In this document: piece after piece, positions 41,254 through 41,328 of the stretch
Layout of the letters: every line of letters begins with the position of its first letter
Numbering within the stretch: the first letter of the stretch is position 1
DNA from: an uncultured Chloroflexia bacterium
GTDB lineage: Bacteria > Chloroflexota > Limnocylindria > Limnocylindrales > CSP1-4
Direction: 5' to 3'
DNA: 64,000 nucleotides
Assembly (NCBI GenBank): GCA_963763775.1
Contig: CAVXPZ010000003.1
Coordinates: 256,001 to 320,000 of the forward strand
Position numbers and translations under genes: made by a program
The notes under the pieces: generated by a model
Told to the model about the DNA's origin: nothing
The model's input: only the letters and a program-made list of their open reading frames with translations
Database searches by the model: none

Positions 41254-41274
41254 GGCCGCAAAGGAGGAACGAGC

Positions 41275-41328
41275 GTGACAGCCGAGTCCATCAAGGGCTG
41301 GCTTCCCGAGTCCATCAAGGGCTGGTAG
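41275..41328 (+). CDS. 17-aa micropeptide MTAESIKGWLPESIKGW (two ESIKGW cores)
   Basis: Strong SD AAGGAGG at 41261-67, 7 nt before the GTG; TAG at 41326-28; 20-bp direct repeat 41282-41301/41306-41325. Confidence 0.7.
   Translation: MTAESIKGWLPESIKGW

Follow-up and report, generated by a model that had tools for sequence, protein, structure and literature searches.

A probable riboswitch-controlled mini-gene in uncultured Limnocylindria and its resemblance to a neighbouring precursor-like peptide gene

What is a reading frame of 17 codons doing between a large regulator gene and a gene for a membrane enzyme, and why does it end so much like the small precursor-like gene that follows it? The frame in question, ORF1 (open reading frame 1), and its neighbour, ORF2, lie in a 64,000-nucleotide stretch of DNA from an uncultured Chloroflexia bacterium (GenBank assembly GCA_963763775.1, contig CAVXPZ010000003.1, positions 256,001 to 320,000 of the forward strand); this whole stretch is called the window below, and its coordinates are used throughout (Table 1). 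A sequence-only reading of the window had described ORF1 as a leaderless peptide gene whose two ESIKGW copies mimic the ORF2 tail, and had suggested that selection acts on the peptide motif. By comparing orthologous loci, we find that ORF1 is very probably a real coding mini-gene under the control of a cyclic diguanylate (c-di-GMP) riboswitch, and that the ligand-like tails of ORF1 and ORF2 resemble each other, being the same in some lineages and having diverged in others, with ORF1 subject to some extra constraint.

In the window, ORF1 comprises 17 sense codons, from a GTG at 41275-41277 to a TAG stop at 41326-41328, and is preceded by a Shine-Dalgarno (SD) sequence whose GGAGG core (41263-41267) is separated from the start codon by a 7-nucleotide (nt) spacer. 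Since the GTG at 41275 is linked to this SD sequence, unlike a TTG at 41182, we took it as the start of ORF1; the longer frame of 48 amino acids (aa) that the TTG would open was rejected, its upstream part lying inside the riboswitch and lacking an SD sequence. A direct-repeat scan of positions 40900-41600 returned a single family, the two identical 20-nt copies within ORF1. An exact repeat of this length far exceeds chance, and its 24-nt spacing keeps the ORF1 frame, so that the SD sequence, the GTG start and the in-frame period are all as the sequence-only reading had described them. The stretch 41200-41440 occurs once in the genome. ORF1 contains no hydrophobic stretch and therefore no export signal, as had been proposed. 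The residue-by-residue alignment of SIKGW at the end of ORF1 with SLRGF at the end of ORF2 (serine, aliphatic, basic, glycine, aromatic) likewise held. The accompanying statement that the underlying DNA differs was true only in part: 5 of the 15 bases differ (TCC ATC AAG GGC TGG versus TCC CTG AGG GGC TTC), but the other 10 are the same in the window.

ORF1 was followed across a pool of distinct loci carrying the riboswitch core (157 records), its start being taken in each case from the longest SD sequence. A canonical ORF1 of 8 aa (4 records), 9 aa (33) or 10 aa (92), ending in K-x-W/F/Y, was present in 129 of the 157 records, and six others carried an in-frame multi-copy ORF1; the remaining 22 included two false matches, with most of the rest shifted by one or two bases. 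Start codons were GTG (111) or ATG (24), and stop codons were TAG (112), TAA (19) or TGA (4). The frame usually ends in [S/T/x]-aliphatic-K-[G/A]-[W/F]-stop, with 15, 18 or 21 nt between the start and the motif in single-copy ORF1s, and tryptophan is replaced by tyrosine or phenylalanine through two-base changes. In 135 of 151 loci, K-x-aromatic-stop shares the frame of the SD-linked start, whereas chance alone would give one third. Both the SD sequence and the start codon, whose loss would have spoken against a gene, are conserved among relatives in an alignment of 22 loci and in the 157-record pool. Nor is the repeat something that is kept at the DNA level regardless of frame, given that the single-copy form prevails and that the frame is retained in the great majority of loci.

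The 17-aa ORF1 of the window is an in-frame 24-nt tandem duplication of a mini-gene for which a single copy of 8-10 codons is the rule. Two copies with a period of 24 nt were found at the window locus (L002) and at L011, L015 and L197, and in frameshifted form at L191; these five loci sit side by side in a quickly built tree of the 5' part of the HD-GYP gene, of which only the leaf order was used, and therefore point to one old event kept through several species. Four copies with a period of 27 nt (L082) and three copies with a period of 21 nt (L192 and L257) all remain in frame to the stop, while at L218, with two copies, a run of A has slipped by one base. Tandem copies occur at three separate places in the tree, and multi-copy loci are rare (7 in-frame and 2 frameshifted among about 165). 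At L011 both copies read AKAW through different alanine codons, which suggests that both are under the same constraint. Two, three or four in-frame copies in different lineages suit the idea of a multi-core precursor that had been raised for ORF1. The related expectation of variable repeat numbers with synonymous changes in orthologues was borne out insofar as such copy numbers, and the synonymous alanine codons of L011, exist, but not as a general property, a single copy being usual.

We compared the last five residues of ORF1 and ORF2 at the 128 loci in which both frames are intact. The two tails were identical at 20 of these loci, and how often this occurred depended on the ORF2 tail: identical ORF1 tails accompanied TLKGF at 8 of 8 loci, SIKGF at 2 of 2, SVKGW at 6 of 10, SLKGW at 2 of 3 and SLKGF at 2 of 32. 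In 18 of the 20 identical pairs the coding sequences nevertheless differ at 1-4 of 15 bases, for example with serine encoded by AGC in ORF1 and by TCG in ORF2. Since identical tails are written with different codons, recent gene conversion does not explain the identity; since the tails track each other while the codons differ, selection acts on the peptide, as the sequence-only reading had suggested from the window and as the in-frame position of K-x-aromatic-stop behind the same SD sequence also argues. Mean tail identity was 2.19 residues, versus 2.02 for shuffled partners, and none of 2000 shuffles reached the observed value, although relatedness among the loci inflates this test.

The pairing can also be followed within single lineages and genomes. 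In family f4, MARQSVKGW or MKASVKGW occurs with an ORF2 ending in ..AIAGGASVKGW, and MARNSLKGW with one ending in ..GGASLKGW. One metagenome-assembled genome (MAG) carries two whole modules, in which MAPLNTLKPF is paired with ..GGATLKPF and MAPESDLKGY with ..GGASLKGF; this MAG may represent two strains binned together, with each pair still matched within its own module. A stricter form of co-variation, between the two frames at position -2, was rejected, there being one P/P pair versus five P/G pairs.

ORF2 looks, by inspection, like a secreted precursor, with a basic n-region, a hydrophobic core of ~14 residues, A-L-A, and then the eight residues GGASLRGF. Across loci it spans 29-32 aa and ends in GGAS-[L/V/I]-[K/R]-G-[F/W]-stop, with A-I-A preceding GGASVKGW in family f4. 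Signal peptidase I cleavage follows the -3/-1 rule, and the ORF2 product would, from its sequence, be exported and cleaved after A-x-A. Among 147 distinct tails, codon positions 1 and 2 of A-G-G-A-S-L hardly vary, whereas position 3 shows 1.5-1.9 bits of variation, a clear coding signature, and the arginine codon may be AGG, CGA, CGC, CGG or AGA. ORF2 starts 12 nt past the ORF1 stop in the window and 4-30 nt past it across loci, and the spacer between the two frames varies freely in length and sequence. Divergent ORF2 tails were seen at L232 (..GGASIRVF), which also lacks the usual terminator hairpin, and at L256 (..GGGAGVRPL).

The control element ahead of these genes had gone unmentioned in the earlier description of the window. 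A c-di-GMP-II riboswitch aptamer (RF01786) adjoins ORF1 on its upstream side; it is the sole copy in this genome, and the model scored above its gathering threshold in 18 of 20 related loci tested. The terminator-like hairpin overlaps the aptamer 3' end by 13 nt and is predicted to form a candidate competing expression platform. Its stem is kept while its loop varies among aligned relatives, and the second hairpin, between the terminator and the SD sequence, likewise has a conserved stem and a loop of variable length. RNAalifold recovered the aptamer, the terminator and this second hairpin from 40 leaders, and found no consensus pairing over ORF1 in the same set. Upstream, the TA[TGC]AGT of the promoter-like site is retained at the same place in alignments of relatives.

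RNA-library contigs from four runs (X9, X12, X15 and X20) fall on 41141-41470. X12 record 4 (41175-41398) and X15 record 10 (41154-41398) span the two-copy ORF1 without gaps and with 9 other letters, and X9 record 32 (41296-41475) differs by one letter. These contigs point only weakly to the presence of the leader and the two ORFs in RNA, as DNA contamination is possible and the contigs show neither transcript ends nor strand. The flanking intervals 40900-41035 and 41614-41900 had no such cover, which by the method's own rule is uninformative. None of the sequencing runs held half of the words of the stretch (best DNA share, 0.23), and we draw no claim about habitat or strain from them.

ORF1, ORF2 and the riboswitch belong to a module with a fixed order, namely a MalT-like STAND-TPR regulator, the riboswitch, ORF1, ORF2, a MASE9-HD-GYP protein and a DUF5317 protein, and the module as a whole is conserved in families f1 and f4, which belong to two orders of the same class. 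A distance of 200-270 nt separates the TPR-bearing regulator gene from ORF1 and ORF2 downstream of it, an adjacency kept in both orders, and in nearly all sufficiently long loci a same-strand relative of the regulator stands immediately upstream. The HD-GYP and DUF5317 genes both follow in 58 of 58 loci with room downstream. In the f4 loci taken separately, HD-GYP was found in 12 of 12, the regulator in 11 of 12 and DUF5317 in 10 of 12. ORF1 itself is kept in at least 14 genus labels of family f1 and in 7 of family f4.

Searches were also made at the level of genomes. DNA of 41100-41510 was found in 182 of 301 family genomes and 36 of 49 genera, a tally that includes one unpublished genome (G140), and close relatives of the HD-GYP protein occur in 35 of 36 genomes sampled from the genus. 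A degenerate ORF2-tail pattern matched 67 of 401 class genomes, distributed as 54 of 137 in f1, 12 of 153 in f4 (another order), 0 of 16 in f2, 0 of 92 in f3 and 0 of 2 in f5, while a reversed control pattern gave 0 matches in the class genomes. In a public species collection the pattern matched at least 119 stretches; among the matches listed, nearly all were Chloroflexota, labelled 'Candidatus Limnocylindrales/Limnocylindria' or 'uncultured Chloroflexia' MAGs, and five, from Burkholderiales, Hyphomicrobiaceae, Opitutales, Opitutae and Flavobacteriales, lacked the riboswitch core and were set aside as chance. Two DNA matches per genome had made paralogous modules a candidate explanation in G097, G130, G145, G227 and G337; this was dropped, RF01786 showing a single module in each (one match in G097, G130, G145 and G337, and one strong plus one sub-threshold match in G227). 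All module-bearing genomes are uncultured MAGs.

How might such a module work? We propose that the c-di-GMP-bound aptamer would retain the strand it shares with the terminator, which would block termination and allow transcription into ORF1 and ORF2, making the riboswitch an ON switch. The ORF2 product would be exported and cut after A-x-A to leave an octapeptide outside the cell, while ORF1, which without its first methionine amounts to about eight residues with the same C-terminal motif, would stay inside. Both peptides would be read by one module-encoded receptor, for which the sensor/TPR part of the STAND regulator is the most plausible candidate; the outside peptide would then have to be taken up. 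The cell would in this way express its c-di-GMP level as two peptide signals, one private and one public, with feedback onto the module, the c-di-GMP phosphodiesterase included. Extra ORF1 copies could supply more peptide after cleavage behind the aromatic residue, or could be tolerated if only the free C-terminus counts. We consider the chances evenly balanced that the module encodes a c-di-GMP-gated pair of inside and outside peptides read by a receptor of its own, and it could just as well go either way whether ORF1 works as a free peptide that shares its reading partner with the ORF2 tail.

Because the tails change together in two peptides, a partner that changes along with them would be expected, and whole modules, regulator included, do differ in their tails. 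The repeats of the STAND sensor would be an obvious pocket for a short C-terminal peptide, and identification of the shared partner with the STAND regulator is possible but on the doubtful side. Complex prediction for ORF1 with regulator residues 300-920, using an alignment of 46 relatives, gave a score of 0.57 (runs at 0.62, 0.00 and 0.57; best control, 0.03), which is graded as weak support; pLDDT (predicted local distance difference test) of the partner was at least 27 and the runs agreed in at least 0% of contacts. Of 80 solved complexes, 58 reach the mark used, as do 2 of 110 mismatched pairs; passing scores no higher than 0.60 account for only 7 of the 80 solved complexes and for both of the passing mismatches, and a 17-aa partner lies outside the calibration. 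The modelled complex thus raises the odds of a STAND partner only a little. The full scheme, a peptide language gated by a second messenger in which the riboswitch switches on the motif inside (ORF1) and outside (ORF2), the STAND regulator reads it and the loop closes on HD-GYP, is less likely than not.

Several observations weigh against the c-di-GMP-gated peptide pair. Tail identity amounts to only 0-2 residues in 89 of the 128 pairs. At the 66 loci with the ORF2 tail SLRGF, which include the genus of the window, ORF1 always ends in K..W and never has R or F, and the likeness of the tails in the group to which the window belongs is one of pattern only. The -2 residue of ORF1 varies (A, S, P, Q, T), whereas ORF2 keeps glycine in all but 2 loci; conversely, the ORF1 lysine is invariant (117 of 117) and almost always encoded by AAG, whereas ORF2 swaps R and K freely. 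Third-position variation in the glycine codon is 0.56 bits in ORF1 versus 1.0-1.9 bits in ORF2, which hints at an added constraint at the level of the nucleotides or the ribosome, and upstream of its tail ORF1 shows no clean three-base periodicity. K-x-aromatic-stop is off frame in 16 of 151 loci (+1 in 9, +2 in 7); these loci, together with the frameshifted L191 and L218, may reflect assembly errors or real decay. Very short forms of ORF1 occur, MKGW at L232 (in G087) and MIKSW at L256 (in G262), and suit a cis-acting mini-ORF at least equally well. The signal-peptide assignment of ORF2 was made by inspection only, and no peptide exporter, importer or protease genes are present in the conserved module, the genome beyond it not having been searched for a permease. 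Finally, the complex score failed in one of its three runs.

Some of these observations would be expected if ORF1 acted in cis. Because ORF1 is the first cistron of a riboswitch-controlled leader, it could be a regulatory leader peptide whose nascent K-G-W delays release at its stop or channels ribosomes into ORF2, thereby determining what share of the riboswitch read-through reaches translation or avoids termination; once released, the peptide would have no role, and the end of ORF2 would use the same ribosomal effect ahead of HD-GYP. ORF1 indeed has its own SD sequence, can shrink to 4-5 codons, strongly keeps only its last three residues and stop (with K invariant and little third-position variation in AAG GGC) and stops shortly before the ORF2 start, and a conserved, apparently structured spacer lies behind the ORF2 stop. 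The ribosome, however, is constant across lineages, yet ORF1 residues -4 and -5 track those of ORF2 through different codons, and tandem in-frame copies put K-G-W far from the stop. The 40 leaders contain no conserved alternative RNA structure over ORF1, the signal-peptide-like body and invariant AGGAS of ORF2 would be needless for stalling, and the weaker c-di-GMP-II-like elements of relatives sit directly before ordinary genes without a mini-ORF. We hold a purely cis-acting ORF1 to be unlikely, yet the most serious of the alternatives. It is less probable again that the peptides are real and their partner is a membrane protein, either the MASE9 domain of HD-GYP or DUF5317, with ORF2 retained at or within the membrane, as a ligand or small subunit tuning c-di-GMP hydrolysis, and ORF1 acting on these proteins from their cytoplasmic face. 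Both membrane-protein genes neighbour ORF1 and ORF2 at all 58 checkable loci, ORF2 is mostly hydrophobic, and the cytoplasmic N-terminus of HD-GYP, M-P-K-S-L-K-L-Y, resembles the tail motif; a passage of a preprint argues, moreover, that MASE9 binds a ligand within the membrane (10.1101/2021.11.05.467447). The ~14-residue core of ORF2 ending in A-x-A nevertheless fits, on inspection, a cleaved signal peptide better than an anchor, and the HD-GYP N-terminus in f4 does not track the L/V change in the tails. By the positive-inside rule, the ORF2 tail is predicted to face outwards, with ORF1 inside, and one site cannot see both.

Two further explanations dispense with a peptide function altogether, and we regard each as highly improbable. 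The repeat could be a DNA or RNA site, for instance direct repeats that the neighbouring regulator binds through its SARP-type winged helix, with the frame incidental. Proteins with an OmpR-type winged helix and a BTAD domain, as found in this regulator, bind direct repeats; AAGGGCTGG is well kept, third positions included, and each repeat copy is predicted to form a small hairpin in the single-sequence fold of the window. Against such a site, the tandem state is rare and its period differs by lineage (24, 27, 21), the frame is retained along with the SD sequence and the start, the encoded residues withstand codon changes (AGC/TCG for serine, TGG to TAC), and the repeat, some 190 nt past the promoter-like site, falls within the transcript rather than at a -35 box; a direct-repeat operator of a SARP/OmpR-type regulator was therefore rejected on copy number, variable period, frame and position. 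Alternatively, ORF1 could be the leftover of a partial duplication of the ORF2 3' end, its translation, if any, being inconsequential. The tails are alike, the frames lie about 100 nt apart and some loci hold frameshifted copies, but the SD sequence, start and stop of ORF1 are kept in two orders of the class while the adjoining spacer is free to vary in sequence and length.

The proposed c-di-GMP-gated peptide pair has partial counterparts among known systems. RRNPP(A) cassettes of Bacillota and phages include Phr/Rap, PapR/PlcR, NprX/NprR, SHP/Rgg and AimP/AimR. As in those cassettes, a tiny precursor gene here stands beside a cytoplasmic regulator with TPR-type repeats, the ORF2 N-terminus is basic and hydrophobic, and the conserved, specificity-bearing part is the extreme C-terminus; as with their pherotypes, tails diversify by lineage, and the two modules in one MAG carry different tails. 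Unlike in RRNPP(A) systems, the candidate receptor is a MalT-like STAND nucleoside triphosphatase (NTPase) with winged helix and BTAD domains and not an RRNPP fold, the peptide genes stand behind a c-di-GMP-II riboswitch, and a second, signal-less copy of the tail (ORF1) lies alongside. The host is a member of the Chloroflexota, the module holds no Opp transporter or protease genes, and the system is known here from sequence alone. Phr propeptides with tandem pheromones, in which several in-frame copies are processed to several mature peptides, have been described (PMC11343458). ORF1, with two, three or four in-frame copies by lineage, resembles these, but those Phr propeptides are secreted and cut by extracellular proteases (PMC11343458), whereas ORF1 has no export signal or known processing.

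The other parts of the module compare as follows. The riboswitch resembles c-di-GMP-II riboswitches of RF01786 in its full-model match and aptamer-overlapping expression platform, and differs in the genes controlled. MalT of Escherichia coli is a STAND transcription activator that is switched on by a small inducer. Residues 69-460 of the regulator align to the NTPase and arm of MalT and are followed by a helical-repeat sensor region, but its DNA-binding end is an OmpR-type winged helix-turn-helix (wHTH) plus BTAD and not LuxR-type, and its 186 bits fall far short of the 537-bit equivalog cut-off; a peptide might be the inducer of the MalT-like regulator. Like the TnaC, erm and cat leaders, ORF1 is a tiny frame with its own SD sequence in a 5' leader, with its C-terminal residues and stop conserved and the next start close by. 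Unlike in those leaders, its tail tracks the neighbouring peptide, it tolerates internal tandem copies, and no conserved alternative pairing spans it. In the library searched, no paper linked c-di-GMP-II riboswitches with Chloroflexi or Limnocylindria with c-di-GMP, and a search judged by titles and the beginnings of abstracts found no riboswitch-controlled peptide genes. The parts are known (a riboswitch, a short precursor beside a repeat-bearing regulator, and an HD-GYP enzyme), while the wiring, the signal-less twin and the lineage are new.

A riboswitch placed over the HD-GYP hydrolase of its own messenger would give a feedback loop. If the proposed scheme is true, cells would broadcast and synchronise their c-di-GMP state in module-specific 'dialects' (tails TLKPF, SLKGF, SVKGW and others), and there would be no precedent for a peptide signal under riboswitch control, for a STAND transcription factor of this type induced by a peptide, or for such a system in Chloroflexota. 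Known c-di-GMP riboswitches switch ordinary genes, and the known peptide signals come mostly from Bacillota; the module brings both together in a widespread uncultured lineage of soil and freshwater. As the module is small, self-contained and easily rebuilt, riboswitch gating of a peptide signal and a peptide-induced STAND/MalT activator become testable, and the purpose of the signal-less twin can be put as a question of self-priming, antagonism or a ribosome-level switch. More generally, genes of 8-10 codons that gene callers skip may be recognised through co-variation with a neighbouring gene.

Table 1. Features of the locus, in window coordinates
Feature	Position	Strand	Description
Regulator gene, 1147 aa	37631..41074	+	MalT-like STAND NTPase, TPR/sensor region, C-terminal OmpR-type winged helix and BTAD
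Promoter-like site TTGACC-18-TATAGT	41071..41100	+	Consensus scan, 10/12 matches; candidate only
5' hairpin TAGTAC ... GTACTA	41108..41133	+	Minimum-free-energy fold
c-di-GMP-II riboswitch aptamer, RF01786	41141..41224	+	61.4 bits versus gathering score 53.5; E 3.9e-13; model positions 1-84 of 84
Terminator-like hairpin and T run	41212..41244 (hairpin 41212-41234)	+	Terminator scan, fold prediction, RNAalifold
Second hairpin, between terminator and SD sequence	41235..41253	+	Pairs 41235-41253 down to 41242-41246; predicted
SD sequence of ORF1	41260..41267	+	AAAGGAGG; conserved in 22-locus alignment
ORF1	41275..41328	+	17 aa, MTAESIKGWLPESIKGW; two-copy form of a mini-gene otherwise of 8-10 codons
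Two 20-nt direct repeats	41282-41301 and 41306-41325	+	100% identical; start to start 24 nt
ORF2	41341..41430	+	29 aa, MKARIVRVLVALSSVAMIALAGGASLRGF; signal-peptide-like, then GGASLRGF
ORF2-to-HD-GYP spacer, conserved	41431..41506	+	CTA[GC]AGT plus long stem changing on both sides; by eye
Membrane HD-GYP protein, c-di-GMP phosphodiesterase family	41507..42910	+	MASE9-like N-terminal domain; Pfam HD_5 E 4e-38
DUF5317 membrane protein, 645 aa as ORF	42989..44926	+	Pfam DUF5317 E 8.8e-24, residues 26-174; rest without family

Profile searches agreed with the earlier identification of the neighbours of ORF1 and ORF2 as a STAND-TPR regulator and an HD-GYP protein. Regulator residues 69-460 matched the NCBIfam MalT model NF003420 (E 8.4e-55) at 186 bits, below the equivalog cut-off of 537, and relatives are named 'MalT / SARP family' by their sources. 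Its Pfam matches were all weak and under the Pfam cut-offs (Trans_reg_C at 927-982, BTAD at 1037-1133, TPR_2 and AAA_22); the protein does not have the RRNPP architecture, having a MalT-like STAND NTPase with an OmpR-type wHTH and BTAD instead. In the HD-GYP protein of the window, MASE9 scored only 15.4 bits; in ten orthologues from other genera it was above the Pfam cut-off in 4 and had an E value of at most 0.001 in 5, and HD_5 was found in all ten of these downstream proteins. At many related MAG loci (L011, L013, L029 and L031 among them) the long HD-GYP gene contains stops or frame changes, as expected from long-read indels, so that mini-ORF frameshifts in these genomes call for caution. 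Its N-terminus (41507-41530) reads M-P-K-S-L-K-L-Y in family f1, like the tail motif S-L-K-x-aromatic, and M-S-x-S-V-R-L-L in f4; we rejected it as a tail mimic, since it does not track the L/V tail variants within f4, and the likeness may be chance. A comparison of the DUF5317 protein with solved structures, at E values up to 1, returned nothing beyond two chance rows.

Several features of the leader and the spacers were also observed. The TAGTAC-N4/5-GTACTA hairpin or palindrome just 3' of the promoter-like site is kept in both orders (families f1 and f4, the f4 loci being L093-L104), and the half-site TAGTAC recurs directly after the ORF2 stop in f1; the element may be a 5' stabilising stem or an operator. 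In the predicted ligand-free fold of the window, the aptamer 5' strand ACGCUCG (41144-41150) pairs with CGAGCGU (41270-41276) at the ORF1 start codon. Translational control by this pairing was set aside, orthologues with changed spacers showing no compensating change. Behind ORF2, TAGTACG follows the stop directly, CTA[GC]AGT appears unpaired, and both sides of the long outer and inner stems change together between species (GTACGG with CCGTAC; CTGATGG with CCGATCAG), as judged by eye; RNAalifold found no consensus for this spacer in an alignment that was loose. Processing, attenuation or weak internal promoter activity (TTACCT-18-TACAGT) are possible roles for the spacer.

In relatives G087, G161, G195, G198, G227 and G229 (L233-L239 and L245-L252) we found 1-6 extra RF01786-like elements each, at sub-threshold scores of 28-49 bits. 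They share the core ..GAGCCACTGGCGAGACCGACCCGC.. and stand directly before ordinary genes, several of them secreted-looking; no mini-ORFs were found behind the elements at these loci, which may be a variant class of the same clan. Outside the module, 33504-35727 and 45829-52631 hold ordinary genes (LexA, DnaB, protein-isoaspartate methyltransferase, PIG-L deacetylase, an ALG6/8-like glycosyltransferase and an epimerase/dehydrogenase). All 12 loci of family f4 (L093-L104) share the ORF1 ribosome-binding region CAGAAGAGGGCACCTTCTG-ATG exactly or nearly so, the exceptions being one CTC for CTG before the ATG and one GTG start. This region folds into a hairpin of 6 bp; its loop, AGGGCAC, contains the sequence of the aptamer loop, GGGCAC, and the hairpin could compete for the aptamer pseudoknot strand, which would amount to translational rather than transcriptional control in that order.

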